A stretch of 64,000 nt of DNA from positions 6,239-70,238 of the forward strand of contig CAJWUJ010000005.1 in the NCBI GenBank assembly GCA_913047625.1, in the 5' to 3' direction. Each line of letters begins with the position of its first letter. Position 1 is the first letter of the stretch. A program made the position numbers and the translations under genes. The stretch comes from an uncultured Dehalococcoidia bacterium. GTDB lineage: Bacteria > Chloroflexota > Dehalococcoidia > Lucifugimonadales > CAJWUJ01. This document shows positions 1 to 27,904 of the stretch, piece after piece. The notes under the pieces were generated by a model. The model searched no databases. It was not told the DNA's origin and worked only from the letters and a program-made list of their open reading frames with translations.

Positions 1-2
1 AA

Positions 3-500: not shown

Positions 501-582
501 CTTTACTCTCAAATTGACGGGTGACTTGAAATACAACCATACTTTTCAGTAATATTATGGACTCAAAAAGAACTCAACGGGA

Positions 583-1272: not shown

Positions 1273-1508
1273 GGGTCTACCTACCGTCTCTTATTTGAAT
1301 ATATGAATATATACTGGATAGATTTAACATATATGTAACACCACATCACGGACGTACTACCGATGAGATGTTATTATAACTAGAGATAGCTCTCCATAAA
1401 TCTGGGTTCGACATTCCCATATGAGAAATATGGACAGGCATAACCTGGGCGGAGAAAAGCTAATGGATAAACTACCAAAATACATAGAACTTAAATGGAG
1501 GTGATCTA

Positions 1509-2510: not shown

Positions 2511-2537
2511 GCCAACAGCTTCTAATTAGCCTCACGA

Positions 2538-2572
2538 GGGACGGCCGGGCTTAATGCCCGGCCGTCCCTTAT
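2538..2572 (+). terminator. rho-independent terminator after glnII
   Basis: Perfect 13-bp GC-rich stem GGGACGGCCGGGC / GCCCGGCCGTCCC with loop TTAAT, followed by TTATA. Confidence 0.75.
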
Positions 2573-2777
2573 AGCAGAATGGACAATGACAACATTCGCA
2601 CTCAAAAACCATATGCATTATTATCGTTATATATGGCCCACATATGACTCTTTCCGTATTTTCGAAGCCACATACTTACGTTTTATTAGCTTTTCCATAA
2701 CAAGCAGCTACACTATGGATATCCGCTTCTTTACAATTAGGCACCTAAGAGGATAAAATTACTTTTTATGGCTGAGA

Positions 2778-2806
2778 TTGACACAAACTTCACAATCTCA
2801 TATAGT
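2778..2806 (+). promoter_or_regulatory. sigma70-like promoter candidate for glnA (TTGACA-17 nt-TATAGT)
   Basis: TTGACA at 2778-2783, exactly 17 nt of spacer, TATAGT at 2801-2806. It lies about 40 nt upstream of the glnA start. Confidence 0.45.
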
Positions 2807-2846
2807 GTGTCTTCTTATTAATACAGCCACTTAAATAGGTGAGGAT

Positions 2847-4178: not shown

Positions 4179-4221
4179 TGGAGCTTACTCATAATAAAGA
4201 GCATCACCAAGGGAGAATGAA

Positions 4222-7200
4222 TTGTTGAATTATCATAAAAACGGCCTATACGATCCTAATTTCGAACACGACGCCTGTGGTGTTGGTCTGGCCGCTAATA
4301 TCACTGGGGATAGAACACACCAAATAGTAAACAATGGCCTAGAAATACTAGATAATCTGGCTCACAGAGGAGCTTGCGGGTGTGACCCTCTAACTGGAGA
4401 TGGTGCAGGTATACTAATCCAAAAGCCTCATGATTTTTTCGTGAGAGAATGCAAGAAGTATAATATTGACCTACCCGAAGCAGACAAATATGGCGTAGGC
4501 ATGGTCTTCCTCCCGCCTAAATCTGAAGATCAAGCACTTTGCATAAAACTAATCGAAGATATCATCACTGAAGAAGGACAATACCTGATCGGATGGAGAG
4601 ACGTTCCAACAAACGACTCGGAAATTGGATATATAGCTCGAAATTCTCAGCCTTCTATCAAACAGGTATTCATACGCCGCAGCGATAATATCACGAATGA
4701 GACAGACCTAGAAAGAAAGCTTTATATAATAAGAAAAGTCATAGAAAATAGATCTGCCGACCTATCTGAAGAAGTCCAGAGCCATTTGTATATAGCTAGC
4801 CTTTCTTCAAACCGCATAGTGTATAAAGGACTCCTTGTTAGCACCCAATTGAGGGGATTCTACCCAGATTTATCCGATCTAGCGATGACAAGTGCATTTG
4901 CAATAGTGCACTCCAGATTTAGCACTAATACCATGGGATCATGGCGCCTAGCACATCCATACAGGTTAGTATGTCATAACGGAGAAATAAATACCGTAAG
5001 AGGGAATATAAATTGGATGACAGCTAGAGAATCTATGTTCTCATCCGAATTCTTCGGAGACGATATAAATAAATTGTTCCCCATAATTACTCCAGGTGCA
5101 AGTGATACCGCTTCTTTCGACAACACCTTGGAATTATTATTAGCTACAGGCAGGTCTCTACCACATGCTCTAATGATGATGATACCAGAGGCAACTGGAG
5201 AAAATGTGGAAATGCCTCTCGAAAAGAAACATTTCTACGATTATCATTCGTGCCTTATGGAACCTTGGGATGGACCAGCACTTATAGCTGCGACTGACGG
5301 TACTAGTATAGGAGTAGTACTCGATAGAAACGGATTACGCCCATTCAGATACGTAGTAACTAAAGATAACTTACTTGTCATGGCATCAGAAGTAGGCGTA
5401 CTTGATATCCCTCCGGAAGATATAGTTATAAAGGACAGAATCAGGCCTGGACGCATGTTTTTACTGGATACCAAAGAGGCGAGAATAATCGAAGATGAAG
5501 AGTTAAAGACTACATTAGCGAACAAACAACCATATGGCACATGGCTCAAGGCCAACAGTCTAAACATAGAAGACCTACCAGATATCACAACTACGACGAG
5601 TAAATCTAAGGATTTAAATGCCCTCCAGAAAACCTTTGGCTATACACTAGAAGATATGCAAATAATTCTTGATCCTATGGCATTGAACGGGTCTGAGCCT
5701 ATTGGGTCTATGGGGAATGATACGCCTCTGGCAGTGCTCTCAGATAAGACCCAATTGATGTTCAACTACTTCAAGCAGCTATTTGCTCAGGTTTCCAACC
5801 CACCATTGGATGCAATCAGAGAAGAACTTGTAACGTCACTAGAAGCATTCATCGGTTCAGAACAAAACCTGTTCGAAGAAACTCCTGAACATTGCAAGCA
5901 GCTGAGATTACACCAACCGATACTCACAAACGATGAACTTAATAAGATAAAACACATGCCTGACAATCTTATGAAAGTGTCTACCTGTAGTACATTATTT
6001 GATACAACTTCTGGAAGCGGATCATTAGAGATTGCAGTAAAGCAACTTTGCGACGATGCGTCAGACGCAGTAGACGCTGGTAATACCATAATCATCCTAT
6101 CCGACTTGGGTGTAAACGATAGATTCGCTCCTATACCTAGCCTTCTAGCAACATCAGCAGTTCACCATCACCTGATAAGACAGGGTAAGAGGACCAAAGT
6201 TGGGTTAGTGGTAGAGTCAGGGGAGCCCAGGGAAGTAATGCACTTTGCCCTACTGATTGGATATGGAGCAGGTGCAATAAACCCATACTTGGCCCTAGAT
6301 ACATTGGATGAAAATATATCAGACGGCACTCTACTCGGAGCCGTGGACGTATACACAGGTCAAAAAAACTTTATCAAGGCAATAGGTAAAGGGGTATTGA
6401 AAATAATGTCCAAGATGGGGATTTCAACTGTACAAAGTTACCGAGGGGCTCAGATATTTGAAGCAATTGGGCTGAATCAGAACTTAATCGACAAATACTT
6501 CACATGGACACCTTCGAGAGTAGGAGGTATAGATATATCTCATATAGAAATTGATTCTAGATTACGACATGAATCTGCTTATATCCACTCACCTGTACTT
6601 GGAACACTAGAATTGGATCAAGGTGGCATATACCAGTGGAGACGTGATGGTGAATATCACATGTACAATCCTGAGTCAATTTCACTACTACAACAGTCCA
6701 CTCGAACTAATGACTACGACACATATCGAAAATTTGCTACGGCTATAGATCAACAAGATAGACAAGCCAAGACCCTAAGAGGGTTAATGGAATTTAAGTC
6801 TGACACAGAACCGATATCTATAGATGAAGTGGAACCTGTATCGGAAATAGTAAAAAGATTTGCAACAGGCGCTATATCACTTGGAGCCATTAGTCGAGAA
6901 GCTCATGAAACTCTAGCAATAGCAGCCAATAGAATAGGTGCCAAAAGTAATACTGGAGAAGGTGGGGAGGATCCGGTCAGGTTCACTTTAGATTCAAACG
7001 GAGATTCTCGCAATAGTGCTATTAAGCAAGTGGCCTCAGGAAGATTTGGAGTCACAACTAATTATCTTGTAAATGCTACGGACCTACAGATCAAGATGGC
7101 CCAAGGGTCCAAACCAGGTGAGGGGGGTCAATTGCCTGGACATAAGGTAGACGAATATATTGGTAAGATAAGACATACTACACCAGGAGTAGAATTGATC

Positions 7201-8742
7201 TCTCCACCGCCTCATCACGATATATACTCAATCGAAGATTTGGCTCAACTAATACATGATCTTAAAAACGTTAATCCCAAGGCGAGAATACATGTTAAAT
7301 TAGTCGCGGAAGTAGGAGTTGGTACAATCGCCGCTGGAGTTTCCAAGGGTCACGCAGACGTCGTACTTATAAGTGGTGACAGCGGTGGAACTGGAGCTTC
7401 TCCAGAATCTTCTGTGAAACACGCTGGGTTGCCATGGGAACTGGGATTGGCAGAAACTCAACAGGTACTATTGATGAACGACCTCAGGGGAAGGATTGTA
7501 GTCCAAACCGATGGCCAGTTAAAAACTGGTAGAGATGTGGCTATTGCATGCCTTCTTGGGGCAGAGGAATTTGGTTTCGCAACCGGCCCTCTGGTAACTC
7601 TCGGCTGCATAATGCTAAGGAAATGCCACCTAAACACTTGCTCTGTTGGTATTGCAACTCAAGACCCAGAACTCAGAAAGAAGTTCGCGGGTAAACCAGA
7701 ATATGTAATAAACTATTTCTACTTCATCGCAGAGCATTTGAGAGAAATAATGGCAAAACTTGGTTTCAAGACCGTGAATGAAATGGTTGGCAGAATGGAT
7801 ATGTTAGAACCAAACATGGCAGTAGAACATTGGAAAGAGAAAGGATTGGATCTATCTCCAATGCTAACCCTCCCTGACGTGCCACAGGGAACAAGCCGGT
7901 TCTGCAACAGCGAACAGGACCACGGCCTAGAAAATTCTCTTGACCATAAACTCATATCATTGTCTGAAACAGCGATCGAGAATAGTTCACCGGTAACCAT
8001 TGATCTGCCCATCAATAACTCTAACAGAGTAGTTGGTGCGATGCTAAGCGGAAGGATTGCAGAAAAACATGGGGATGAGGGCCTTCCTGAAGACACAATA
8101 ACATGCATATTCCGCGGTTCAGCTGGCCAAAGTTTTGGAGCATTCTTAACAACTGGTGTTACGTTAAACTTGTTAGGAGACGCCAACGATTATTTTGCAA
8201 AAGGCATGTCTGGGGGTAGAATAGTATTAAGACCTCCGCAAGAATCGTCATTCACTCCAGAAGAAACTACCATAGTAGGTAACGTAGTGCTATATGGTGC
8301 TACAGGAGGTAAAGTATTTATAAACGGCTTAGCTGGAGAAAGATTCGGGGTAAGGAACAGTGGAGCCAGTGTAGTCGTTGAAGGAGTTGGAGATCATTGC
8401 TGCGAATATATGACAGGAGGAACAGTAGTAGTCCTCGGCGATACTGGTAGAAATTTCGCGGCAGGTATGAGTGGTGGTATATCATACGTATTTGACGAAT
8501 CTGGAGACTTCGAGAGTCGTTGCAATCTGGACATGGTAGGACTTGAGAACCTAGCAGCAGAAGACGAAATAATACTTAAGAAACTTATACAAGAGCACAA
8601 GGACTACACAGATAGTGCAAATGCAAAGAGCATACTTGCATCTTGGAATAAAATGAAGGATAAATTTGTTAAGATAATACCCAACGACTATAAGAGGGTA
8701 TTAGAAGAGAGAAAAGCTGAAGGAAAGGTGAGCATTGGGTAA
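4222..8742 (+). CDS. gltB: glutamate synthase (GOGAT) large subunit
   Basis: 1506 aa. Ntn amidotransferase Cys (EHDACGVG), FMN/3Fe-4S central domain, and a C-terminal GXGXG beta-helix region. Confidence 0.95.
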
Positions 8743-10186
8743 ATCAACAGGTTTCATGGAATTCCAGAGGAGAACTCCAGAGAAGCGCGCAATAGCTGAA
8801 AGACTCAGGGATTCGAAAGAACTATACAACACGTGGCCTGAGAAGGATATTAAGGATCAGGGTGCCCGTTGTATGAACTGTGCCGTACCATTTTGTCACA
8901 CAGGATGCCCGCTCGGAAACCTAATCCCAGAATGGAACCATCTGGTCTACACAGGTCAATGGGAATCAGCTCTAGTCAGACTCCATTCAACGAATAATTT
9001 CCCAGAATTCACAGGTAGAATATGTCCAGCCCCATGCGAACCAGCATGTGTCCTTTCTATAAATCAAGATCCTGTAACTATAGAATATATAGAGAAGGCA
9101 ATAGTAGACAAAGGGTTTGAAGAAGGTTGGATAAAACCAGAACCACCAAAAACTAGGACAGGGAAAAATGTCGCCGTCATAGGTTCTGGACCGGCAGGAT
9201 TAGCAGCATCACAACAACTAAATAGAGCCGGACATACGGTAACTTTATTCGAAAGAGATGAATACATTGGTGGACTCTTGAGATTAGGTATACCAGATTT
9301 TAAACTAGATAAGAATATCGTTCAAAGACGCGTTGACCTTATGGCCGAAGAGGGAGTCATCTTCAAACCAAACACCGAAGTTGGAGTAGATATATCAGTC
9401 GAAGACATTAATAAAGAATTTGATGCGATATGTATTACAATAGGTGCCTGTGAACCAAGAGAATTAGCAGTGGAAGGCAGGGACTTATATGGAGTCCATT
9501 TAGCAATGGACTATCTTCCACAACAAAACAGACGAATAGCCGGTCACAAAATAGACCCATCAGAATCTATATCCGCTGAAGGCAAGAGAGTTGTTATCCT
9601 CGGAGGAGGAGATACTGGCGCAGACTGTCTGGGGACTGCCCATAGACAAGGTGCAGAGATAGTTTACCAACTGGAGCTTCTACCAAAGCCACCAGAAACT
9701 AGAGGATCTAATAATCCCTGGCCTCAGTGGCCACTTATACTTAGGACCTCATCGGCACATGAAGAAGGCGGTTCAAGGGACTACAACATATTGACTAAAG
9801 GATTCTCTGGTAGCCAAGGCAAAGTCGAAAGGCTAGATGCAGTGAGAGTTGAATGGGGTAAGCCAGATGAGTCTGGCCGGCCTGTAATGAGTGAAATTCC
9901 TGACAGTGCATTTTCCATAGAAGTCGATTTAGTGCTACTGGCAATGGGATTCATACACCCTGAACATGAAGGGCTTATAAAGGACCTAGGAATAGATTTG
10001 GACGATCGCGGCAATATAAGTACAAATTCTGACCGAATGACTAGTATCCCTGGGATTTTTGCTGGTGGAGATTCTGTTAGAGGTGCTTCACTTGTAGTAT
10101 GGGCAATAGCCGAGGGTAGGCAAGTAGCTCACGGCATAGATAAGTACCTCTCTGGTCAGTCAAACCTGCCATCAGTAGCAGTCTAA
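8735..10186 (+). CDS. gltD: glutamate synthase small subunit (NADPH)
   Basis: 483 aa starting [10 protein letters not shown]. Cys clusters [14 protein letters not shown], and the [13 protein letters not shown] dinucleotide fold. 8-nt overlap with gltB. Confidence 0.93.
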
Positions 10187-10267
10187 TATAATTCAGATAG
10201 ATAGAACTATATTAGATTATCTAATGCAAAGTCTTACCACAATGCCAGAAGAAAGAAGCGCTGATAA

Positions 10268-10984
10268 TTGGAGATACTTCTAAAAGGAGCAAAGGAGTTT
10301 GGGGTAAGTCTAAGTACAAAACAAATTGAAACATTCAAGTTGTTTCAAGAGGAATTGCTAGCTTGGAATGAGAATATAAACCTAACCTCAATAAAAGATA
10401 CAAACCTAGTTCAATCTAAGCATTTCCTAGAATCAATATCTTCATACAATCTTATTAAAGATATCTACCCGGACAGGCTATCTTTATTAGACCTAGGCAG
10501 CGGGGCAGGATTCCCAGGAATACCCCTAAAGATAATCGATCCCAATATAGATCTATGTCTTGTTGAATCTATCAAGAAGAAGGCTAATTTCTTAACATAT
10601 ATATCTTCGAAGCTTAGGCTTAATGATGTGACTATAGTTCCTGATAGAGCAGAACAAATAGCGAACGATACTGGCTACAGAGAGTCTTTCGATGTAGTAA
10701 TATCCAGGGCTGTGGCTCAACTCGGCACCTTACTAGAATTGGCCCTACCACTTGTGAGAGTCGGAGGATTATTTATAGCCCATAAATCCACAAGAATCGA
10801 GTCCGAAATTATGCAGGCTAACAAGGCTTCTGATCTACTGGGTGGTGAACTTAACAGTGTGCAAGAGGTATACATCAAAGATATCCTAGACCCATCTACT
10901 TTAGTTTTATACAAAAAAGTAAGAAAATCACCTAAAATCTACCCTAGACGGTCAGGAGTTCCCCGAAAAAACCCTCTGGCTTAA
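10268..10984 (+). CDS. rsmG: 16S rRNA (guanine527-N7)-methyltransferase
   Basis: 238 aa. NLTSIKD...HFLES and LLDLGSGAGFPGIPLKI SAM motifs, typical of GidB/RsmG. Confidence 0.88.
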   Translation: MEILLKGAKEFGVSLSTKQIETFKLFQEELLAWNENINLTSIKDTNLVQSKHFLESISSYNLIKDIYPDRLSLLDLGSGAGFPGIPLKIIDPNIDLCLVESIKKKANFLTYISSKLRLNDVTIVPDRAEQIANDTGYRESFDVVISRAVAQLGTLLELALPLVRVGGLFIAHKSTRIESEIMQANKASDLLGGELNSVQEVYIKDILDPSTLVLYKKVRKSPKIYPRRSGVPRKNPLA

Positions 10985-11066
10985 CCAATGATAATCGAAA
11001 GGCGTTAACATCAATAACCTATCTCTAAGCTCACGTTTCTTATCGAAGAGCAGCCTGTTTTCCATT

Positions 11067-12008
11067 ATGATAGCCATATCACTTCTGATAGTGTTGGTGA
11101 CTCGCTTTGATATAGATTGGTATAGCACGTTTGAGACCTTGGCCGAATGTAATGTTGCTCTATATGGTGTGGCTTTCGGATCATATTACTTTGGATTCTA
11201 TATTCGTGGGCTTAGATGGCGTATTATGCTCTCGAATGCAGATATAGTCGATCCGTCTTCGAAACCCCTGCCCTCTCCGCTCAAATGTGCCAGGTATGTA
11301 TTCATAGGTTGGTTTGCTAATGCCATAACATGGTTCAGATTAGGTGACGCATATAGAGCGTATTCGCTAACAGCAGACTATGGCTATAGTTTCCCAAAGA
11401 CAATAGGCACCGTAGTTTCAGAACGTATTCTGGATATTGCAATGGTATTTATACTCTTGATAATAGCATCTATAACATTATATAAAGGTGCCGACACGGA
11501 TTTACTCATTTTATTTATCGGCATGTCAGCACTTTTAGCATTAATTGCTAGTTTATCTTTTATTGGATTGAAACAATTTGGGGTTAAAATAGCAAATCTT
11601 CTACCAAATGCTTTAGCTTTGCCTTATCTAAGATTTCATGCGGGCACTATAGATAGCCTAGATAGAATACCAACTCTATTAACGTTAAGTTTTATATCTT
11701 GGCTAACTGAAATTGGCAGATTATATTTCGTAATCCAAGCCCTTGGAGACACCAACATAGTATTGCCATTGATAGTATTTGTAACCCTCGCAAATGCCAT
11801 ATTGACCACAATACCTTTAACTCCCGGCGGAGTAGGAATAGTTGAACCAGGCATAATAGGACTTCTAACGTTGAGTATACCTGCGACAGAAGCTCTATCT
11901 ATAGCTCTATTGGACCGCTCAATAAGCTATGCAAGTATAGTAGTGTTTGGGGCCCTGTTGTTTGTGATACAAAAACTTTCAAACATAAGCAAAAATGAGG
12001 ATCCATGA
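11067..12008 (+). CDS. integral membrane protein, LPG-synthase-TM / flippase-like (UPF0104) family
   Basis: 313 aa with multiple hydrophobic helices and a TPGGVGIVEPG motif characteristic of the family. Confidence 0.6.
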   Translation: MIAISLLIVLVTRFDIDWYSTFETLAECNVALYGVAFGSYYFGFYIRGLRWRIMLSNADIVDPSSKPLPSPLKCARYVFIGWFANAITWFRLGDAYRAYSLTADYGYSFPKTIGTVVSERILDIAMVFILLIIASITLYKGADTDLLILFIGMSALLALIASLSFIGLKQFGVKIANLLPNALALPYLRFHAGTIDSLDRIPTLLTLSFISWLTEIGRLYFVIQALGDTNIVLPLIVFVTLANAILTTIPLTPGGVGIVEPGIIGLLTLSIPATEALSIALLDRSISYASIVVFGALLFVIQKLSNISKNEDP

Positions 12009-12018
12009 ACATATCCTC

Positions 12019-12048
12019 TTGACTTCAAATTTGTGAGCGAAATACAAT
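12019..12048 (+). promoter_or_regulatory. sigma70-like promoter candidate (TTGACT-18 nt-TACAAT)
   Basis: Hexamers at 12019-12024 and 12043-12048, about 32 nt upstream of the NUDIX gene start. Confidence 0.3.
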
Positions 12049-12080
12049 CAAATCAAATAACGAAAAGGTCCATTATATAA

Positions 12081-12527
12081 GTGACTGACAAAGCAAAACT
12101 TGCATTCCCCATATCTGCTGGTGGTGTGGTATATAGACTTCAAGAGAATACGCCGGAGATATTAATATGTGGCAGGCATCAAGCAGGTGGATGGTTGTGG
12201 GCATTACCAAAGGGTACTCCAGAAGCTGGTGAGTCTCTCCCTAACACCGCACTCCGAGAAGTACTAGAGGAAACTGGATTAGAAGTGAGTCTGTCCAAGA
12301 GAATTGACTCCGTCAACTACTGGTTCCTGCGTAACGCTGATCAAGTAAGATGCTATAAAACAGTATATTTCTATCTAATGACCACTGTAGGTGGATCAAT
12401 AGAAAATCATGACTCCGAATTCGACGTAGTAGAATGGATAGATGCCATAACTTCATTGACGAAATTAACCCACGAAGCAGAAAAATCTATAGTCGAAAAA
12501 TCAATTAGGATCATAAGAGACGACTAG
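12081..12527 (+). CDS. NUDIX hydrolase
   Basis: Nudix box GTPEAGESLPNTALREVLEETG (GX5EX7REUXEEXGU). Confidence 0.85.
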   Translation: MTDKAKLAFPISAGGVVYRLQENTPEILICGRHQAGGWLWALPKGTPEAGESLPNTALREVLEETGLEVSLSKRIDSVNYWFLRNADQVRCYKTVYFYLMTTVGGSIENHDSEFDVVEWIDAITSLTKLTHEAEKSIVEKSIRIIRDD

Positions 12528-12529
12528 CC

Positions 12530-13078
12530 ATGACCAATAAGATAGTTATAAAGGGACAAACCATCTTTCTCCGGGAAAAACGATTGGAAGACGCTCCATT
12601 AGATTATTCATGGAGATTAGATGAAGAGTTGTCCGATCTGGACGCCACTGTGCCTATAAGAATGTCATATAGCCAATATCTAAGAGTATATGAGGACGAA
12701 CTTAGCTATCCTGTATCCTGGTCAAAGAGATTTGCTGTAGAAACATATGATAACAAAACTATTGGAAACTGCATGTACTATGATATAGATCTTATGCGTC
12801 AACAGACTGAGTTGGGAATAATGATAGGAGATAAGGAATACTGGAACCACGGATTTGGTACAGATGTGGTAAATACACTTGTGCAACACATATTCAGCAC
12901 AACAAGAATAAACAGAGTCTATTTGCATACACTAATATGGAATATAAGGGCACAAAAGTCTTTTGCGAAATCTGGCTTTTATGCTGTAAGAGAGGTCACA
13001 AGGCGTGGCTATAACTTTCTATTAATGGAATTGACCAGGGAATCTTGGGAGGACTTTTTTGAAATCACTGAAGCCTAA
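12530..13078 (+). CDS. GNAT family N-acetyltransferase (RimJ/RimL-like)
   Basis: 182 aa. The pattern IGDKEYWNHGFGTDVVNTLVQHIF...RVYLHTLIWNIRAQKSFAKSGF is typical of Acetyltransf_3-type GNATs. The gap to the upstream gene is 2 nt. Confidence 0.75.
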   Translation: MTNKIVIKGQTIFLREKRLEDAPLDYSWRLDEELSDLDATVPIRMSYSQYLRVYEDELSYPVSWSKRFAVETYDNKTIGNCMYYDIDLMRQQTELGIMIGDKEYWNHGFGTDVVNTLVQHIFSTTRINRVYLHTLIWNIRAQKSFAKSGFYAVREVTRRGYNFLLMELTRESWEDFFEITEA

Positions 13079-13173
13079 GATGCCACTAAAGTATAACCAA
13101 ACAAGCATTGCGCCAGTGGTCTATTTTAACTATCATTGCAATTACATCACCTAGTCTACGATAATGAAATTAT

Positions 13174-13249
13174 GCCCCTGTAGCTCAGGCGGACAGAGCA
13201 GCGGTTTCCTAAACCGCGCGCCCCGGTTCGAGTCCGGGCAGGGGTACCA
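13174..13249 (+). tRNA. tRNA-Arg (anticodon CCT), CCA encoded
   Basis: Hand-folded cloverleaf of 76 nt. Acceptor GCCCCTG/CAGGGGT, anticodon stem GCGGT/ACCGC with loop TTCCTAA, T-arm CCCGG-TTCGAGT-CCGGG, then ACCA. Confidence 0.9.
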
Positions 13250-13269
13250 TCCACTATATCAATGATATC

Positions 13270-14292
13270 TTATTCATGAAGGTATCTTAATAGATTAGCT
13301 AGATCACTATGACTCGATTCATCTGATGGGAACCCGAGAGAAATCCTTGATGAGTAGGCTCCATATCGTTCTTTCAATGCAGGTCCTATATCTTTGTAGG
13401 CACCTGAAACGCTAAATGTATCCAATATGGATTCATTTATAAGTGAGGGCATTTCCTGCCATTTTCCCTGTTTAGACATTTCATGCAGCTCAAGACATGT
13501 ATCTCCCCATTCATGCATATCCATAACTGACTTGTAACTTCTTGTAGAACCATAGAATGATATTCTTTTCCTGCAAACTTCCCTTTGGAGCATTACTTCT
13601 TCCTCATCCCCACCAGTTGCAATCATCCCACCAGCTACTATCGATATGTCATCCATAGTCCTGCCGTTGGACTTTGCCCCGATCTCTACATTTGGGAGAA
13701 CTACCTCCTCTACATAACGGTTATTATTAAAACTATGTAATATAATTCCGTCGCAGACACTGCCAGCTACCTTCGACATTACTGGTCCTACAGCAGCAAT
13801 TGATATGGTTGGCATATCGCAATCCAACTTCCCGGGATTAAATTCTGGGGTCATCAGGTCAATCGAATAGTGTTTGCCTTGATAGTTAAGTTCTGCACCA
13901 TTTTGCCAACAATCCCAAATGCTTTTGATGGACTCAACATACTCTTTCATTCTAGGTGCGGGAGCGTACCAAGGAACGCTAAAGCGCCTTTCATTGTGAC
14001 CTTTAACCTGTGTGCCTAGACCTAATTCGAATCTCCCATCCGACATCTTTTGAAGATCCCAAGCCATATAGGCAGATAGCATAGGACTACGAGCAAACGC
14101 TATCGCTATTGAAGTTGCTACTCTTATTTTCTCTGTATGCTCAATGGCCATTATAGAAGGAAAGAAAGGATCGTGTGCTAATTCTGAGAAAGATATGCCG
14201 TCGAAACCAAGCTCCTCTGCAGTCTGAGCTATCTTCGGAATTAACCTTAAATCCTCTTGATCGCCACTACGTAGATGACAATATACTTCCAT
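13270..14292 (-). CDS. luciferase-like (LLM class) oxidoreductase, probably F420-dependent
   Basis: 340 aa. AEELGFDGISFSELAHDPF and GRFELGLGTQVKGHNERRF motifs resemble the MSMEG_2256-type F420 LLM family. Confidence 0.75.
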   Translation of the reverse strand: MEVYCHLRSGDQEDLRLIPKIAQTAEELGFDGISFSELAHDPFFPSIMAIEHTEKIRVATSIAIAFARSPMLSAYMAWDLQKMSDGRFELGLGTQVKGHNERRFSVPWYAPAPRMKEYVESIKSIWDCWQNGAELNYQGKHYSIDLMTPEFNPGKLDCDMPTISIAAVGPVMSKVAGSVCDGIILHSFNNNRYVEEVVLPNVEIGAKSNGRTMDDISIVAGGMIATGGDEEEVMLQREVCRKRISFYGSTRSYKSVMDMHEWGDTCLELHEMSKQGKWQEMPSLINESILDTFSVSGAYKDIGPALKERYGAYSSRISLGFPSDESSHSDLANLLRYLHE

Positions 14293-14533
14293 TCATATCT
14301 CCTTAGTTAATTATGGACAGCATTGTAACACGTTGAATCTATTTAAGCTCAATAATCAAGATGAATGGTTTCTGGATATCTCTCAAAGATTAGGCAATTG
14401 AGACACGAGTAATTTCAGAATAAGTATCTTGTGGAATTATGAAACTTGAATAGGTGATAGATAAGATATTACAATTGTATCCGCAAGTACATCCCAGATA
14501 ATACAAATTTAAATTTAACAAACAGATATCAAT

Positions 14534-14830
14534 ATGAACAAAACCCGGTCGCTGATGCTTGTGAGCATAGGCTCTTTTGTCGGTTCCTTAGTTGCTATTG
14601 TTTTAAATCAAGACCTAGACACACAAACTAACTTCTATATCCTTTTGGCAGGAATATCAGTATTATGCCTAATATATAGTGTATACATCGACATTAAGGC
14701 ATATATTGGCATCCATCTTATACACACCGAACCGGACAGAATACCTATCGTTGATAGAGCTGGTGAGATAACCGATGACGATATAGCAGAAGAAATCCAA
14801 AGACATATGGATGATCACAAACACTCTTGA
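14534..14830 (+). CDS. hypothetical small membrane protein (2 predicted TM helices, acidic His-rich tail)
   Basis: 98-aa ORF with two hydrophobic stretches. Its codon usage matches its neighbours. I recognise no family. Confidence 0.45.
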   Translation: MNKTRSLMLVSIGSFVGSLVAIVLNQDLDTQTNFYILLAGISVLCLIYSVYIDIKAYIGIHLIHTEPDRIPIVDRAGEITDDDIAEEIQRHMDDHKHS

Positions 14831-14899
14831 AACTCCCCATAGCTATAGAAAAAGAATATCTAATTTTTCGTCACCCACTCCACAATATGAGGATAACTA

Positions 14900-15148
14900 A
14901 TGATTAACAGGAATTTAGTTCTAGCCAGTTCACTCTTAGTGTTACTGTTAAATATAGTTGCGCTAGTGTACCTATACAGTCAAAGCAATCAACTGGAGCA
15001 GAAAATTATTGAATTAGAATCTAATAGACAACAACACCTTGATATAATATACCCACAACCCTTGGATAAAGATATTTCGACTAGCCTCGCCGAAATAGAT
15101 GCTAGGATAAAGGCAATTGAAGGAACTCTACAAATCAACGCAAAGTAA
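14900..15148 (+). CDS. hypothetical small membrane-anchored coiled-coil protein
   Basis: 82-aa ORF with an N-terminal TM helix and then a heptad-like region. GAGGA lies upstream of the ATG. Confidence 0.45.
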   Translation: MINRNLVLASSLLVLLLNIVALVYLYSQSNQLEQKIIELESNRQQHLDIIYPQPLDKDISTSLAEIDARIKAIEGTLQINAK

Positions 15149-15204
15149 CTCTCAATACACTAAGACCACAATCCCCAAATACACTCCTACCCCTGCTTAT
15201 TAGC

Positions 15205-15639
15205 TTACCGAGAATTTACTTCTGCCAGAAACACAGGTATTATTCTAGTAGTTTTACTCTGATAATCCTCGTATGGAGGATAAGCCTGGACCGCCAGAGA
15301 CCACAACCTAGATCTCTGTTCGACATCTTCGACTTCCCTTACTACCATCTCATATACGTCAGACCTATCTCTTATCATAACTCGTGGATCAGCCTTCAGG
15401 TTATAATACCAATAAGGATTCTTCTCTGAACCACCCTGGGAGGCAACAAGCACATATTTATTGCCATCCGAAACCCTCATCAGGGGAGTTTTCCTTATAG
15501 AACCGGTTATTCTACCAGTGTTTGTGACTATTATGACCGGCAATCCCCTAAGGGTAGTCCCCTCTTCACCGTTACTAGATTCATACAGCTCGACTTGCTC
15601 AGCTACCCATTTGGTAGTGCTAGGTATGTAATCATTCAT
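15205..15639 (-). CDS. deazaflavin (F420H2)-dependent nitroreductase family protein (DDN-like)
   Basis: The NPYWYYNLKADP motif and about 145-aa size are typical of the family. I prefer the ATG at 15639 (GGAGG 9 nt upstream) over the TTG at 15648 that abuts the SD. Confidence 0.8.
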   Translation of the reverse strand: MNDYIPSTTKWVAEQVELYESSNGEEGTTLRGLPVIIVTNTGRITGSIRKTPLMRVSDGNKYVLVASQGGSEKNPYWYYNLKADPRVMIRDRSDVYEMVVREVEDVEQRSRLWSLAVQAYPPYEDYQSKTTRIIPVFLAEVNSR

Positions 15640-15646
15640 AGGATAC

Positions 15647-15734
15647 AACCTCCATAATATTATACAAATCTATAACCTATACAGTTATACACAACCAACG
15701 TACAAACAATGACAACTGATAACCTCCATAATAT
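15647..15734. repeat. 14-bp perfect direct repeat AACCTCCATAATAT (copies 15647-15660 and 15721-15734)
   Basis: Read directly from the sequence. On the minus strand each copy reads ATATTATGGAGGTT, which carries both an SD-like GGAGG and an ATG. Confidence 0.9.
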
Positions 15735-15942
15735 CCAAAAAAATTGATTGTCTTTAGCTGTAGCTATAAATGCAAGTATCTTTTTCATCAGTTTACACTA
15801 TTCGATTTACATACAGAAATTTCCTAATATCAGAAATCAATAGAAATCATATCAGATCTTTTATGCTCAATGGAGCCCCCCTTTACCACACATCATTATC
15901 AAGGTAAAATATGCCTCATCGCTTGCGAAAGCGGTAAAATAC

Positions 15943-16018
15943 AGGAGTGTAGCTCAGATGGAAGAGCAGCGGTCTCCAAAACCGCAGGTCGGGGGTTCGA
16001 ATCCTCCCACTCCTGCCA
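15943..16018 (+). tRNA. tRNA-Trp (anticodon CCA), CCA encoded
   Basis: 76-nt cloverleaf. Acceptor AGGAGTG/CACTCCT, anticodon stem GCGGT/ACCGC with loop CTCCAAA, T-arm GGGGG-TTCGAAT-CCTCC, discriminator G, then CCA. Confidence 0.92.
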
Positions 16019-16056
16019 TTTGCAGTGCATCTGGTGTGAATTACGTTAACTGGTCT

Positions 16057-16671
16057 ATGCCGTTTCATTACAGAGTTGTTGCAGAAAAAATTCTCCTCGG
16101 TTGTTATTATTGCCTACATTTGGTTGAAAAGCTCTCTGCTTTGATGGGTCATATAGCAGGCTGGGCCTTTCTTTTTCTTGGTTTTTACATCACTATTGAC
16201 ACAGTGCTCCGGAAGTACACTACCTGGTCGTCCAAAGGACATACAGAGATTGGACAGTATGTCTTAGCAGTTGCAGTAACTTGGGGGGCTGGCTACGCCT
16301 TAAGTAAGAGGGCGCATATAAGGATTGATACTTTATTGATCCTTATGCCTAAGTGGTTACAAGGATATCTTAATCTTCTCTCTATTGCTTTGGTATGCAT
16401 TTTTCTTTCAGCGATACTATGGTATCTATTGACTGACTTTTTACCCTATACTTTTAGCATGAATGCTAAGGCAGCCACTATCCTTCGTACTCCCCTCAAA
16501 ATCCCTCAAACGTTGTGGGTTTTTGGATTATTTTGGTTGTGGTTATATGCCCTATTGCAGTTGATCGTTGGCATATTTGAAATAGGACTAGGAAGAGCTT
16601 CAATCTTAGCATCTGAGAGTGGACAGCCAAAGCCGTATTTGGGCACTAATTCAAGCATTGAGGAAGCATAG
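16057..16671 (+). CDS. dctQ: TRAP transporter small permease subunit
   Basis: A hydrophobic 4-TM protein directly upstream of dctM. I moved the start to ATG 16057 because the tracked ORF start (15958) lies inside tRNA-Trp. Confidence 0.7.
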   Translation: MPFHYRVVAEKILLGCYYCLHLVEKLSALMGHIAGWAFLFLGFYITIDTVLRKYTTWSSKGHTEIGQYVLAVAVTWGAGYALSKRAHIRIDTLLILMPKWLQGYLNLLSIALVCIFLSAILWYLLTDFLPYTFSMNAKAATILRTPLKIPQTLWVFGLFWLWLYALLQLIVGIFEIGLGRASILASESGQPKPYLGTNSSIEEA

Positions 16672-16746: not shown

Positions 16747-18051
16747 ATGTCAGCAATAGTACTGGGTACCAGTTTTGGGCTATTAATTATTTTTCTGTCA
16801 ATGGGGGTATATGTCTTTGCCAGTCTCGGTACAGTAGCACTTATCCTGTTTTGGGTATTTATTCCCGCGAAATGGCATGTCTTGACAGGAATGTTGTTGT
16901 GGCCAGCAAGTACTAACTGGCTTCTTTTATCAATACCACTATTTGTATTGATGGGAGAGTTAATATTGCGAGCGGGTATTGCAGATCGCCTTTATCGAGC
17001 AATTTCCTACTGGTTGATAGGTATTCCTGGGGGCCTTCTTTACAGCAATATTGTTGCCTGTGGTATTTTTTCTGCAGTTTCAGGTTCCAGTGTTGCTACT
17101 GCTGCGACTATAGGTACTGTTGCAATCCCAAACTTTGCCTCTCGGGGTTATAACGAAAGATTGGTCTTGGGATCTCTTGCAGCTGGCGGAACTTTAGGTA
17201 TTCTTATCCCTCCCAGTATTCATCTGATCCTTTACGGATATTTCACGGGAACATCTATAGGAAAACTATTTATGGCTGGCTTTATGCCTGGATTGGTTCT
17301 TATGTTGTTGTTTATGTTACTTATTTTTGGGGCATCAATCCTGAGTCCCAACTGGACCGGGATTGAAAACAGAGTTTCATGGACAGTTCGTTTGAGAAGC
17401 TTGAAGGATTTTGTTCCTACTTGCGTGCTTATTGTCATTGTTTTAGGGAGCATTTACAGGGGTGTTGCTACTCCTACTGAAGCTGCAGCTTATGGCGTTA
17501 CTGGAGCGTTTTTGTTGGGATTATGCTATAGAAGTGTTAATTACAGGATGCTTTCTGAGGCTGTTACATCGACCATTCGAACCTCTTCCTTTATTCTGAT
17601 GATTGTTATAGCTGGGAATCTTTTTAATTACGCTTTAGTTATTCTGGATGTGCCGCAACAAATTGCCTCTGCTGTCGGAGGTCTTGGGTTATCTCAATGG
17701 GTACTTTTAGTAGTTATCATACTGTTGTACATTTTTTTAGGCATGTTTATGGAGAGTTTTACTATTGTAGTTACCACTGTTCCTATGCTAGCACCACTCT
17801 TGTTTGCTACTGGGAAGGATCCTGTTCTGCTAGGAGTGTTGTTCGTAATACTTCTTGAAATGGCGTTGATTACGCCCCCCGTTGGATTAAACCTTTATGT
17901 GATTCATGGGCTTCGCCAAACGAGAGGATCAATAAACGATGTCATAGTCGGGGCCCTACCCTTCGTACTGTGCATGCTAGCAATGATAGGGATAATAACG
18001 CTGTTTCCCCAAATTGTCTTGTGGCTACCGCAAACAATGTTCGGGAGTTGA
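16747..18051 (+). CDS. dctM: TRAP transporter large permease subunit
   Basis: 434 aa and polytopic. Motifs such as LFVLMGELILRAGIADRLY and SGSSVATAATIG are typical of the DctM family. Confidence 0.88.
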   Translation: MSAIVLGTSFGLLIIFLSMGVYVFASLGTVALILFWVFIPAKWHVLTGMLLWPASTNWLLLSIPLFVLMGELILRAGIADRLYRAISYWLIGIPGGLLYSNIVACGIFSAVSGSSVATAATIGTVAIPNFASRGYNERLVLGSLAAGGTLGILIPPSIHLILYGYFTGTSIGKLFMAGFMPGLVLMLLFMLLIFGASILSPNWTGIENRVSWTVRLRSLKDFVPTCVLIVIVLGSIYRGVATPTEAAAYGVTGAFLLGLCYRSVNYRMLSEAVTSTIRTSSFILMIVIAGNLFNYALVILDVPQQIASAVGGLGLSQWVLLVVIILLYIFLGMFMESFTIVVTTVPMLAPLLFATGKDPVLLGVLFVILLEMALITPPVGLNLYVIHGLRQTRGSINDVIVGALPFVLCMLAMIGIITLFPQIVLWLPQTMFGS

Positions 18052-23249: not shown

Positions 23250-24173
23250 ATGTGCGGTGTATGTGGCGTTCTGTACAAAACAAAAAACGGAGAGAAATCT
23301 GCTCCGGTGGGTGTAGCGTTGACAGAAATGTTGGCTACGATGGCTCACCGAGGGGAAGATTCTACTGGTATAACGGTCGCTAATCACAGCGAAAAAACTG
23401 ATTTCATCGTTCGCCTTTGGGCAGAAGATGTGCACGGAGCAAAGCAACACATAGGAGAAGCCGCTGCTGTTCACAATATTACCCCGGTTATTGACAGAAT
23501 GAATGGAAACTTTATTCGTGTGCTCGTAAAAGTCAATCAGGATCAGGATATTGCTGACCAGGTAAAAACATTATCTACGTTTTTCAATCAAGTTGAAGGA
23601 GTCACACTCCATAGCATTGGTAATGTTTCTGAGGTGATCAAGGACACTGGAACTGCAGAGGATTTAGATCTAAGACATAGTATAAGGGCCATGTCTGGAT
23701 CTCATGGGATTGGCCATGTTCGTCTGGCTACAGAAAGTCGTGTTGATATAACCCATTCTCACCCGTTTTGGGCATATCCTTTCGCAGACGTGACCGTAGT
23801 GCATAATGGCCAGTTAACCAATTACCATAAATTACGAAGAAAATACGAAGCTGGTGGCCATAAATTCTTAACAGGAAATGATTCTGAGTTAATTGCTGTT
23901 TACTTGGCAGACAAACTATCGAGGGGTTTAAGTTTACATGACTCTCTGAGTGGAGCGTTGGGTGATTTAGATGGCACATTCACGTTTTTAGTTGCTACTT
24001 CTGACAGTATTGGATATGCAAAAGACCGTTGGGCAGCTAAACCTTTGGTCATACGAGAAGATAAACACGTTGTAGCGATTGCTTCTGAAGAAGTGGCTCT
24101 GGATACTTTAGGGTTAGGTGAATCGCAGCGAATTGAACCGCAGGAAAACGAGGTAATGACTTGGTCGATATAG
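23250..24173 (+). CDS. mgsA: class-II (Ntn) glutamine amidotransferase subunit, N-methylglutamate synthase subunit A-like
   Basis: Starts MCGVCGV (nucleophile Cys after Met). GATase_2 pattern (HVRLATES, HPF, VHNGQLTNY). First gene of the three-gene split-GOGAT-like set that precedes gmaS. Confidence 0.75.
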   Translation: MCGVCGVLYKTKNGEKSAPVGVALTEMLATMAHRGEDSTGITVANHSEKTDFIVRLWAEDVHGAKQHIGEAAAVHNITPVIDRMNGNFIRVLVKVNQDQDIADQVKTLSTFFNQVEGVTLHSIGNVSEVIKDTGTAEDLDLRHSIRAMSGSHGIGHVRLATESRVDITHSHPFWAYPFADVTVVHNGQLTNYHKLRRKYEAGGHKFLTGNDSELIAVYLADKLSRGLSLHDSLSGALGDLDGTFTFLVATSDSIGYAKDRWAAKPLVIREDKHVVAIASEEVALDTLGLGESQRIEPQENEVMTWSI

Positions 24174-24844
24174 ACGCCTCCCAAATGACGACACGAGATA
24201 TTAATCTGAGGCTGAAGTCTAACAGTTTTAGCAATAACGGTATAACGGTAAAAAATTCGCAAGGTAGACATAATTTGGGTGTAGGTCTTTCTTCAAACAC
24301 CGAAATAAAGTTTGAGGGCAATGTAGGTTATTTTTGTGGCGGTTTGTCAAGCCAATGCCAGATTGTAATCCAAGGCAATGCAGGTTGGGCTGTAGGGGAC
24401 AATTTAATGAGTGGATCTATTGCTGTCGAAGGCAACGCAGGTGCTTCAGCAGGGAGTACCATGCGAGGAGGTAGTCTTTTCGTTCGTGGGAATAGTGGTG
24501 CCAGAACGGGGATCTCCATGAAGGGTGGCCACTTAGTGGTTGGAGGAGACTCAGGTTTTATGACTGGATTTATGATGCAGAAAGGACGTATTGTTGTATG
24601 TGGAAACGTGGGCGAAGCAGTAGGAGATTCCATGTATGAAGGAGAAATATTTGTAGGTGGGACGATCGGATCCCTAGGGAGTGATGCTATTGTGCAGGAT
24701 GCTTCTGAGGATGAATTGATTGAAGTGTGGGAGATGTTGGCGAAAGAAGGGATTGCAGAACGACCTAAGTTTAAGAAAATTGTATCTGCTAAAAAACTCT
24801 ATCACTTTGATAGTTTGGAACGCTTAGAAAAAAACGTAATCTAG
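24161..24844 (+). CDS. mgsB: GXGXG-motif (GltB C-terminal domain-like) subunit, N-methylglutamate synthase subunit B-like
   Basis: Repeated G-x-G beta-helix motifs (GNAGWAVGDNLMSGSIAVEGNAGASAG...VRGNSGARTG). 13-nt overlap with mgsA. Confidence 0.75.
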   Translation: MVDIDASQMTTRDINLRLKSNSFSNNGITVKNSQGRHNLGVGLSSNTEIKFEGNVGYFCGGLSSQCQIVIQGNAGWAVGDNLMSGSIAVEGNAGASAGSTMRGGSLFVRGNSGARTGISMKGGHLVVGGDSGFMTGFMMQKGRIVVCGNVGEAVGDSMYEGEIFVGGTIGSLGSDAIVQDASEDELIEVWEMLAKEGIAERPKFKKIVSAKKLYHFDSLERLEKNVI

Positions 24845-24860
24845 GAGTATTAGAATATAG

Positions 24861-26156
24861 ATGGTAAAGCCGAGTAGCCAAATTTGGACGCCTGAGGCAA
24901 TAGAGGACGTACATGAGAAAGCTGAACTGGGTCGGTATCGCATCCGAGGGTTCAGTTCTTTTCAAAAAGTACCACATTTTGACGATTTGGTATTTTTATC
25001 TACGGGACTTACGAGATTTCCTTTAGAAGGCTACAAAGAGAAATGTAATACTAAGGTGGTTATTGGGCATCGATACGCTAGTCAGCCTTTGGAGTTAGCC
25101 ACCCCAATTTACATCACTGGCATGAGTTATGGAGCTCTCTCCCAGACCGCTAAAAATGCTTTGGCTCGGGCCTCAAGTATGGTTGGTGTTGCTACATGTA
25201 CTGGCGATGGTGGTATGTTGCCATCAGAAAGGAAGAATGCTGATAAGTTGATTTATCAAGTATTGCCAAGTAGATATGGTTCAAGTCCTGCTGATTTAAT
25301 GCAGTCTGATGCCATTGAAATTGTGGTAGGTCAAGGAGCGAAGCCAGGTACAGGGGGTTTACTCATGGGAGTCAAAGTACTGGGCGACGTTGCGGAAATG
25401 AGAGATTTGCCCAGTGGTATTGATCAAAGGAGTCCTACACGGCATCCAGATTGGTTAGGACCTGATGACTTGTCAATTAAAATAGAAGAATTACGTGAAG
25501 CTACTGAAGGTAGGGTTCCTATACATGTAAAATTACCCGCATGTCGTGTGGTGGACGATGTCAAACTTGCCGCAAAAGCTGGTGCAGACGCTATTGTTAT
25601 TGACAGTATGTTGGCTGGGACTGGGGCATCCGCGGATATTATGCTGGATCAAAGTGGGATACCAACGATAGCCGCTATTCCTTTAGCTCGCAAAGCTTTG
25701 TCTGAGCTTGGGTTAGATGGGGAGGTAAGTCTTATAGCATCAGGAGGGATCAGGAATGGGGCAGATGTTGCAAAAGCTTTGGCATTAGGAGCTGATGCAG
25801 TAGCCATTGGGTTAGCAGCTTTAATAGCCTTAAATTGCAATAAGGAAATTCCTGAAGCCAATTATGAGCAAGAAATAGGTGTACCAGCTGGCTATTGTCG
25901 TCATTGTCACACCGGGAAATGCCCTGTCGGGATCACTACCCAGGATCCTGATTTGGAACAGCGGCTTGATTTTGAGCAAGCGGCAAATAGGGTAGCGAAT
26001 TTTATCAATGCAACAAGTATGGAACTAGCTTTGATTACCAGATCATTAGGTAAAGGAGACGTGCGTAGTCTTGAACCTGAAGATTTGGTTGCTCTTACTA
26101 TGGAAGCTTCGGCTATGGCCCAAATACCTCTTGCAGGAAGCAACAAGGTCTATTGA
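24861..26156 (+). CDS. mgsC: FMN-binding glutamate-synthase-family subunit, N-methylglutamate synthase subunit C-like
   Basis: 431 aa. GltB FMN-domain motifs (VGQGAKPGTGGLL, ASGGIRNGADVAKALALGADAV) and a C-terminal Cys cluster CRHCHTGKCPVGITTQD. Confidence 0.78.
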   Translation: MVKPSSQIWTPEAIEDVHEKAELGRYRIRGFSSFQKVPHFDDLVFLSTGLTRFPLEGYKEKCNTKVVIGHRYASQPLELATPIYITGMSYGALSQTAKNALARASSMVGVATCTGDGGMLPSERKNADKLIYQVLPSRYGSSPADLMQSDAIEIVVGQGAKPGTGGLLMGVKVLGDVAEMRDLPSGIDQRSPTRHPDWLGPDDLSIKIEELREATEGRVPIHVKLPACRVVDDVKLAAKAGADAIVIDSMLAGTGASADIMLDQSGIPTIAAIPLARKALSELGLDGEVSLIASGGIRNGADVAKALALGADAVAIGLAALIALNCNKEIPEANYEQEIGVPAGYCRHCHTGKCPVGITTQDPDLEQRLDFEQAANRVANFINATSMELALITRSLGKGDVRSLEPEDLVALTMEASAMAQIPLAGSNKVY

Positions 26157-26204
26157 GCCTTCACTGATATAAGGACATGATCATTTTCTCTATAAGGAGT
26201 ACTA

Positions 26205-27566
26205 ATGATGGTTACGCGTGAAGAAATTGCCAAGAAACTGAGTCAGGATGGTATCCGATATATTCTGGTTCAATTTGTTGACATTCATGGCTCAGCTAAA
26301 CTGAAAATGGTTCCAGTCGAAGCATTTCCTGGCATGATTGACCAGGGGGCAGGTTTTGCAGGCGGTGCCGTTTCAGGACTAGGACAAGGACCACATGATC
26401 ATGACATGATGGCTCGAATCGATATTGAAACCTATACCCCTCTTCCGTGGAAGTCTGGTTTTGCAAGATTCGCAAGCGACTTATATGTGGATGATGAACC
26501 GTACGGCAATTGCCCTCGGTTGAACTTAAAGAAGATCTTATCAGAGTTGAAAGAGCAAGGGTTTATTTTTAACGTGGGGATTGAACCAGAGCATTTCCTA
26601 GTCAGTCGTGATGGTGACGGAACAATAAGGCCTTGGGATCCTCATGCCGTTGATACATTGGCTAAGCCATGCTATGACTTTAAGGGTATTGGTAACGCGG
26701 TTGATTATTTACAAGATATGATGGGTTCGATGAACCAATTGGGATGGGGTTGTTACCAATCAGATCATGAAGATGCTAATGGTCAATATGAGATTAACTT
26801 TGATTACAATGATGCATTGATCACCGCAGATCGGTTTACGTTTTTCAAAATGATGGCTAGTCAAGTAGCTGGTAAATACGGGGCTATTGCAACGTTTATG
26901 CCTAAACCTTTTTCGGATAGAACTGGTAGTGGAGCTCATATTCACTATCATTTGGCTGATGCTGCTACAGGTGAAAATGTGTTCTTAGATAACGATGATA
27001 AAAGAGGCTTAGGTTTATCCAAATTGGCTTATCACTTCATAGGCGGCATATTAGCCCATGCTCGCGCCTTGTGTGCAATTAGTTCCCCTACGGTCAACTG
27101 CTATAAAAGATTGCAGATAGGGTCTGCGCTTTATGGTTCCCGATCAGGTTTCTTGTGGACACCGGCCTTTATTACTTACGGTGATAATAATCGTACACAA
27201 ATGATTAGAACGGCAGGACCCGGCCATCTTGAAGACCGAACTATATCATCGGCATGTAATCCTTATTTGAGCTTCGGAGCGTATGTTGCTGCCGGCTTAG
27301 ATGGAATAAAAAGACAATTACTCCCTGGTGAGCCAAATAAGGAAAATATGTATGAAAAAACTATAGAAGATTTGAAAGCTCGTTCTATTGGAGTTTTGCC
27401 ACAAAGCTTAGAGGAAGCTTTAAACTGTCTAGAGCAAGATGAGATTGTTTTGAGTACGCTAGGACCATTGGCCAAGGATTTTATCGAGCTTAAGCGTTTA
27501 GAATGGTTAGAATACCATCGCTTGGTTAGTCAATGGGAAGTGGACCGATACCTTACTTTTTTCTAG
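26205..27566 (+). CDS. gmaS: glutamine-synthetase-family protein, gamma-glutamylmethylamide synthetase-like
   Basis: 453-aa GS fold (IRYILVQFVDIHG, GSGAHIHYHL). It sits between the mgsABC-like and sarcosine-oxidase-like genes, as in known N-methylglutamate pathway clusters. Confidence 0.7.
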   Translation: MMVTREEIAKKLSQDGIRYILVQFVDIHGSAKLKMVPVEAFPGMIDQGAGFAGGAVSGLGQGPHDHDMMARIDIETYTPLPWKSGFARFASDLYVDDEPYGNCPRLNLKKILSELKEQGFIFNVGIEPEHFLVSRDGDGTIRPWDPHAVDTLAKPCYDFKGIGNAVDYLQDMMGSMNQLGWGCYQSDHEDANGQYEINFDYNDALITADRFTFFKMMASQVAGKYGAIATFMPKPFSDRTGSGAHIHYHLADAATGENVFLDNDDKRGLGLSKLAYHFIGGILAHARALCAISSPTVNCYKRLQIGSALYGSRSGFLWTPAFITYGDNNRTQMIRTAGPGHLEDRTISSACNPYLSFGAYVAAGLDGIKRQLLPGEPNKENMYEKTIEDLKARSIGVLPQSLEEALNCLEQDEIVLSTLGPLAKDFIELKRLEWLEYHRLVSQWEVDRYLTFF

Positions 27567-27622
27567 AGTTGAATGAATGGAAATAGAAGAGATTTTAAAT
27601 ATAGGCGGACTAGGTTTTTAAT

Positions 27623-27883
27623 ATGACTTATCTGATATCTTGTCCAGGTTGTGGAGACAGAGGTGTCGATGATTATCGATACGGTGGGTCTGTTTTAAAA
27701 AGACCAGGGTATAACGATGATCCTGAACTGTGGGACTCTTATTTTTATTTGCGGGTCAATAGAGCAGGAATGGAGAAAGAATGGTGGTATCACAGAATGG
27801 GTTGTAAGCAATGGTTTATAGCAGAACGGGATAGTACCACTAATCAAGTACATGTTACTTATTGGCCAGGGGAAAATAAGTGA
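27623..27883 (+). CDS. mgdB: sarcosine oxidase delta-subunit family protein (N-methylglutamate dehydrogenase subunit)
   Basis: 86 aa. The CPGCGDRGVDDYRYGG pattern is typical of the SoxD family. Confidence 0.75.
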   Translation: MTYLISCPGCGDRGVDDYRYGGSVLKRPGYNDDPELWDSYFYLRVNRAGMEKEWWYHRMGCKQWFIAERDSTTNQVHVTYWPGENK

Positions 27884-27904
27884 TTACAAGAGGATGTTGT
27901 AGTT

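Follow-up and report, generated by a model that had tools for sequence, protein, structure and literature searches.

Conserved RNA genes are typical collapse points in assembly. Inter-genome chimeric contigs, which are the targets of GUNC and of pre-binning correction tools, hold two genomes in one contig, joined at common sequence; their marker quality is acceptable, and the foreign part adds duplicated single-copy genes and false gene content. [quoted passage not shown] A likeness can also be drawn to tRNA-associated genomic islands, in which an atypical block lies beside a tRNA gene, and to the strand asymmetry of replication origins, in which third-position GC and AT skew change sign at one point. 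The contig studied here, C5, has the properties listed above for inter-genome chimeras, and we find no essential difference from known cases. It is unusually clean: the common sequence is one 76-nt tRNA with one mismatch, and both parental arrangements are found on long independent contigs from the same samples. We consider it highly probable that C5 is an inter-genome chimera in which DNA from two marine bacteria, B and A, is glued inside a shared tRNA-Trp gene.

The window analysed here is the whole stretch of 64 000 nucleotides at positions 6239-70238 of contig C5 in assembly G000 (1.55 Mb, 42 contigs). Within the genome set searched, this assembly is the single genome of its species and alone represents family f1; its marker-based quality is 91.3% complete and 3.3% contaminated. 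The original prediction had placed an abrupt codon-usage switch in an AT-rich spacer next to tRNA-Trp, and had offered two explanations, either a large segment that abuts a tRNA after lateral acquisition or rearrangement, or a chimeric assembly join. The features on which the discussion rests are given below; positions with a contig prefix are those of the assembly and all others are those of the window, and L009-L012 and L014-L019 are the independent contigs of organisms A and B, respectively.

1-15958: organism B segment in the window, by identity to independent contigs and atypical codon use; the entire segment is C5:1-22196, extending 6238 bases left of the window
10268-10984, plus strand: rsmG of B (TIGR00138, 162.6 bits), the second RsmG in the assembly
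13174-13249, plus strand: tRNA-Arg(CCT) of B (ARAGORN)
15205-15648, minus strand: DDN, deazaflavin-dependent nitroreductase (TIGR00026, 8e-30), last protein gene of the B segment and found in all B contigs
15649-15942: AT-rich spacer of 294 bp, GC 0.32, the DDN-tRNA-Trp intergenic region of organism B, identical in L014-L019 through the tRNA
15943-16018, plus strand: tRNA-Trp(CCA) (ARAGORN and Rfam), 76 nt, C5:22181-22256, a hybrid gene in this contig
15958, plus strand: position 16 of the tRNA, the diagnostic base, which is A in the window and 6/6 B contigs, C in 4/4 A contigs (junction alignment)
15959-16018, plus strand: crossover zone, 60 bases that are the same in A and B
16019-64000: organism A, the main organism of the bin, at 99.8-99.99% identity to L009-L012 as far as C5:34289, with native codon use throughout
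16057-16671: dctQ, organism A
16747-18051: dctM (TIGR00786)

The compositional step is real and far beyond chance. Codon use was recalculated across all ORFs of 80 aa or longer, and the hand counts accompanying the original prediction proved exact, both for rsmG (10268-10984; ATA for 12 of 22 Ile, 14 CTA codons, AGR for 9 of 11 Arg) and for msrA (61659-62132; ATA for 2 of 9 Ile, no CTA, AGR for 0 of 8 Arg). Left of 15650, each of the 14 ORFs, whichever its strand, uses ATA for a fraction of 0.45-1.0 of its Ile codons (fATA) and AGR for 0.58-1.0 of its Arg codons (fAGR); right of the junction most ORFs have fATA of 0.18-0.47 and fAGR of 0.25-0.6. Median fATA is 0.67 for the 15 genes of the left block versus 0.31 in the remaining genome, and median fAGR is 0.75 versus 0.45 (Mann-Whitney test of block genes against 1263 other ORFs, p=1e-10 for fATA and p=5e-9 for fAGR). 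Every one of the 15 block genes has fATA of 0.45 or more, and the longest comparable run elsewhere in the assembly is three genes. Along the 12 largest contigs, 8-kb bins give fATA of 0.21-0.48 and fAGR of 0.28-0.74, with the highest values in the short final bins of C7, C5 and C1; C5:1-~22000 alone reaches fATA of 0.55-0.62 together with fAGR of 0.68-0.72. The block also prefers TTC (a share of 0.55 vs 0.34 in the rest of the genome), AGA (0.47 vs 0.30), GTA (0.42 vs 0.28), CTA (0.24 vs 0.14) and TGC (0.56 vs 0.39) along with ATA (0.62 vs 0.31), and the remaining codon families are mostly near-equal. Tetranucleotide composition agrees, in that the strand-symmetric tiles of the block rank 2, 4 and 6 of 190. 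By these measures and by codon log-likelihood the composition breaks at a single point, and no other stretch of the assembly is an outlier of this kind. The AT and GC skew at third positions of the plus strand also reverses sign at the junction, the two sides of which have similar GC content, as had been proposed.

Independent contigs show what lies on either side of this step in each organism. Contigs for the left side were gathered by exact-protein look-up of the F420-dependent LLM protein (13270-14292), and those for the right side by exact-protein look-up of dctM (16747-18051). The left-side set comprises L014 (237 kb, from the sample of L011), L016 (211 kb, from the sample of L009), L015 (59 kb), L017 (54 kb), L018 and shorter pieces, along with L019, a 5-kb contig of an NCBI assembly that crosses the junction. 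L014-L018, which are five independent contigs from five samples, and L019 match C5 at 99.75-100% identity up to C5:22256, the last base of tRNA-Trp, and the block is 100% identical to B contigs over 12.7 kb. Past tRNA-Trp, the B contigs continue into tRNA-Leu(gag), and the long ones then into tRNA-Cys, tRNA-Leu(taa), a 189-aa ORF and a CoA-binding protein, followed farther on by pyrF, cmk, plsC, glmS, an HD-domain protein and dnaG. The right-side set comes from four samples (L009, 108 kb; L010, 53 kb; L011, 74 kb; L012, 70 kb) and matches C5 at 99.8-99.99% identity starting at C5:22181, the first base of tRNA-Trp (window position 15943). Upstream of tRNA-Trp, these four contigs match C2:152654-161637 of the same assembly, close to where C2 ends, at 99.9%, and then have a 212-bp spacer that is absent from the assembly. 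Since they join C2 to C5:22181, the native order in organism A is LLM, LLM, apt, 212 bp, tRNA-Trp, dctQ, dctM. The A and B junctions were found on separate long contigs within the same sample twice (JGI 3300020477 and ERZ27286493). Both parental arrangements thus exist elsewhere with other partners, and their overlap is exactly tRNA-Trp.

The position of the join follows from this overlap. On C5, the sequence common to the A and B contig sets is the 76-nt tRNA-Trp only, with one mismatch, at 15958; because the overlap is confined to this gene and differs at that base, the join lies within 15959-16018. The switch had been placed in the AT-rich spacer, which belongs entirely to organism B; its real site is inside tRNA-Trp (15943-16018). 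Nor is the spacer the longest gap of the window, as had been claimed: at 294 bp it is second to the 336 bp of 2511-2846. The hybrid arrangement itself is absent from every independent contig retrieved for the two sides. An exact scan of metagenome_contigs for the hybrid junction gave 0 matches, but so did a degenerate control that should fit both parental forms, and the scan therefore carries no weight.

These contigs strongly favor the chimeric join over the other explanation first offered, because each side is found with different partners and the two share tRNA-Trp only. The codon and tetranucleotide steps and the skew flip are simply two juxtaposed genomes in opposite replication orientation. 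We hold with high confidence that the codon-usage step at tRNA-Trp is an assembly artefact and a feature of neither organism, and we infer that the join is computational rather than a real recombinant molecule.

How such a join might arise can be sketched. A and B are present in the same samples, each with a tRNA-Trp(CCA) gene alike except at position 16. The assembler may have been unable to separate the two genomes over the 60 identical bases at 15959-16018, as could happen when the k of a de Bruijn graph is about 60 or smaller, or when contigs are merged. The path taken would run from the DDN gene, spacer and tRNA-Trp of B into the tRNA-Trp and dctQM of A. With A making up three quarters of the contig, the bin would then have retained it.

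Further evidence that two organisms are represented comes from gene content. The B segment carries genes for a response regulator, glnII, glnA, gltB, gltD, rsmG, a flippase-like protein, a nudix protein and a GNAT protein, and then tRNA-Arg(CCT), the F420-dependent LLM protein, two small ORFs and DDN. Several of these have a second copy in the assembly. The native RsmG at C3:62891-63622 (137.8 bits) has 36% amino-acid identity to that of B, and both score above the curated cut-off. ARAGORN finds 38 tRNAs in the assembly, with duplication confined to Met(CAT) and Arg(CCT); the second tRNA-Arg(CCT), at C14:33800-33875, shares 68/76 positions with the block copy. The nudix and GNAT pair is repeated in the same order at C5:81811-82738 (50% and 56%), an aroKB and ubiA pair is repeated on C4 (43% and 44%), and glnII is repeated on C22 (69%). 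These duplications fit better with orthologues of a second organism than with paralogues. In the flank that B carries beyond its tRNA cluster, the genes have B-type codons (fATA 0.55-0.68). Native counterparts of cmk, plsC, glmS and the HD gene stand in that order on C11 of the assembly, with 40-56% amino-acid identity to those of B, and a native pyrF is on C24, at 52%.

Organism B is a marine bacterium of Dehalococcoidia type that shares its order with A but belongs to another family. Among 400 genomes sampled from the order of A, its flank is closest to family f45 (G378, 68-70% nucleotide identity, colinear over 5.5 kb). The nearest named relatives of its LLM protein are from marine 'Dehalococcoidia bacterium' MAGs, at 72-74%; three such relatives found through this protein (L023-L025) share none of the other block genes. 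DNA-level synteny in relatives was limited to matches at tRNAs, in a comparison set without a genome of the family of A. An exact-protein look-up of DDN returned no record.

The far end of the B segment also lies in a conserved RNA gene. At C5:1-2031 the contig end truncates a 23S rRNA gene, of which the 5′ two-thirds remain as the only LSU sequence in the assembly; all of C5:1-22256 is colinear with B from this truncated gene to tRNA-Trp, so that a conserved RNA gene stands at both ends. L103, a 212-kb contig of GCA_009391575.1, matches C5:1-13289 at 97.5% identity and carries the alcohol-dehydrogenase (ADH) gene found at C5:2243-3289; a literature search for a paper naming GCA_009391575 found none. 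The 5′ end of the 23S gene of B is adjoined by this alcohol-dehydrogenase gene, not by a 16S gene or tRNAs (C5:1-2031, locus L115), and the rRNA genes of B appear to be unlinked.

A possible objection is that the segment was acquired laterally next to tRNA-Trp through the action of an integrase, given that a compositionally atypical block does adjoin a tRNA gene. Islands of this kind are normally found 3′ of the tRNA, whereas this block lies 5′ of tRNA-Trp. Neither Pfam nor NCBIfam assigns an integrase or recombinase to the block, and no direct repeat of the tRNA 3′ end was found in the window or in C5:1-22180 at up to three mismatches, the far border being the contig end. The content of the block is core metabolism and housekeeping, and it is colinear with the chromosome of B on contigs of more than 200 kb. 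Unlike a tRNA-associated island, then, the block lacks an integrase and att repeats, sits on the 5′ side and is an ordinary stretch of another organism's chromosome. This part of the original prediction is abandoned, and we regard integrase-mediated transfer as extremely unlikely. An even smaller chance, effectively negligible, is given to the idea that a strand-bias switch at a replication origin or terminus has shifted codon choice. The skew sign change has the polarity of an origin, cumulative GC skew has a local minimum at the junction, and rsmG, which is often found near oriC, is nearby. However, the excess of ATA and AGR extends to the minus-strand genes of the block (LLM and DDN) and is not shared by lagging-strand genes outside the block; DnaA boxes do not cluster, the spacer having one box with 1 mismatch and the window 18 against a shuffle mean of 20; and in the independent contigs the two sides are neighbours in neither genome. 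Unlike the asymmetry at an origin, the preference for ATA, AGR, TTC and GTA is strand-independent here, and the flanks are not contiguous in nature. We rejected the oriC reading because the codon excess is strand-independent and no DnaA-box cluster was found.

More attention is due to a real recombinant, that is, a strain of A, in the population sampled for this assembly, that gained at least 22 kb of B chromosome, from the 23S fragment to tRNA-Trp, by homologous recombination with a crossover in the shared tRNA-Trp. The breakpoint lies in conserved sequence, where homologous recombination could also happen; the A part has no gltBD of its own, so that an acquired GOGAT would make functional sense; and the tail of contig C2, near this locus, also departs from the other A contigs. 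Against this, 60 identical bases between genomes at 40-56% amino-acid identity are a very poor substrate for recombination. A second crossover is not seen, the B segment reaching the contig end inside the 23S gene; the hybrid's absence from the contigs retrieved for either side counts against it too; and rsmG, tRNA-Arg(CCT) and other genes of the segment have second copies in the assembly. Since the block is fully identical to free-living B contigs over those 12.7 kb, a transfer could only have been extremely recent. If a recombinant did exist, the DNA upstream of its tRNA-Trp would have been replaced through a crossover in only 60 bases, with a donor of a different family, which would have given A its only GS-GOGAT genes. 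We leave this explanation a slim chance and retain the inter-genome chimera as the preferred reading.

Taken as a chimera, the locus is a quality warning on the assembly rather than a matter of biology. About 22 kb (1.4%) of the assembly belongs to another organism, and this foreign piece holds the only 23S rRNA fragment of the assembly, its only gltB and gltD, a glnA, a glnII, a second rsmG and a second tRNA-Arg(CCT). C5:1-22180 should leave this genome, and these genes leave with it; the assembly minus the B segment is without gltBD. From the uncut contig one would wrongly infer an rRNA-based placement, the presence of GOGAT, an island at tRNA-Trp, lateral transfer of nitrogen-assimilation genes and a replication origin by skew. 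The case also illustrates that a strand-independent step in codon use, combined with independent contigs, can place a chimeric join within 60 bases without reads.

The absence of dctP from the TRAP operon, which had been noted as a peculiarity of the junction, stands as far as the gene itself goes, there being no dctP beside dctQM; it is unrelated to the junction, since dctP is also absent in the unjoined native A contigs. The genome has seven DctP-family genes at other loci; in the native arrangement, the closest of them (C2:144262-144990) lies about 17 kb upstream. Farther right, the A part carries two band-7 genes and methylamine/N-methylglutamate genes including a GmaS-type enzyme. The A genes at 23250-30826 comprise a trio (a GATase, a 227-aa ORF and a Glu_synthase-domain protein), a GmaS-type glutamine-synthetase homologue and SoxD/SoxA-like genes; this layout is that of the N-methylglutamate pathway for methylamine use and does not represent GOGAT genes.

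The final 537 bp of contig C2 (161638-162174) diverge from 4/4 independent A contigs. The divergence begins in the N-terminus of apt, at the PDFPKPG motif, with the alternative Apt start MNIKDHIRGIPDFPKPG..., and because this tail departs from the A contigs, C2 was left unjoined to tRNA-Trp. The ORF-free sequence that follows the alternative start matches nothing among the sequences fetched, and an exact-protein look-up of the C2-type Apt returned no record. The tail may reflect strain variation in A or another misjoin.

Other parts of the assembly are also compositionally unusual. C3:51801-59200 has tetranucleotide rank 1 of 190, and several outlier tiles lie in C3:44000-66600, where third-position skew is irregular. 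At the end of contig C7 (64438-66810), three ORFs around tRNA-Val(CAC) have fATA of 0.5-0.75 and fAGR of 0.8-0.88, after a run of native-type genes; the stretch may be another foreign join at a tRNA, or else an island of the flexible genome. The last C7 ORF resembles a DUF2075-type ATPase, and the first ORF of C4 (340-1101), which is cytidylyltransferase-like, is similar.

In B the tRNA cluster runs Trp-Leu(gag)-Cys-Leu(taa) (L014:7915-8350). A has a Leu(gag)-Cys pair (C2:155218-155404) that is 86% identical to that of B and lies about 6 kb from its tRNA-Trp. This pairing in A and B is a remnant of shared gene order.
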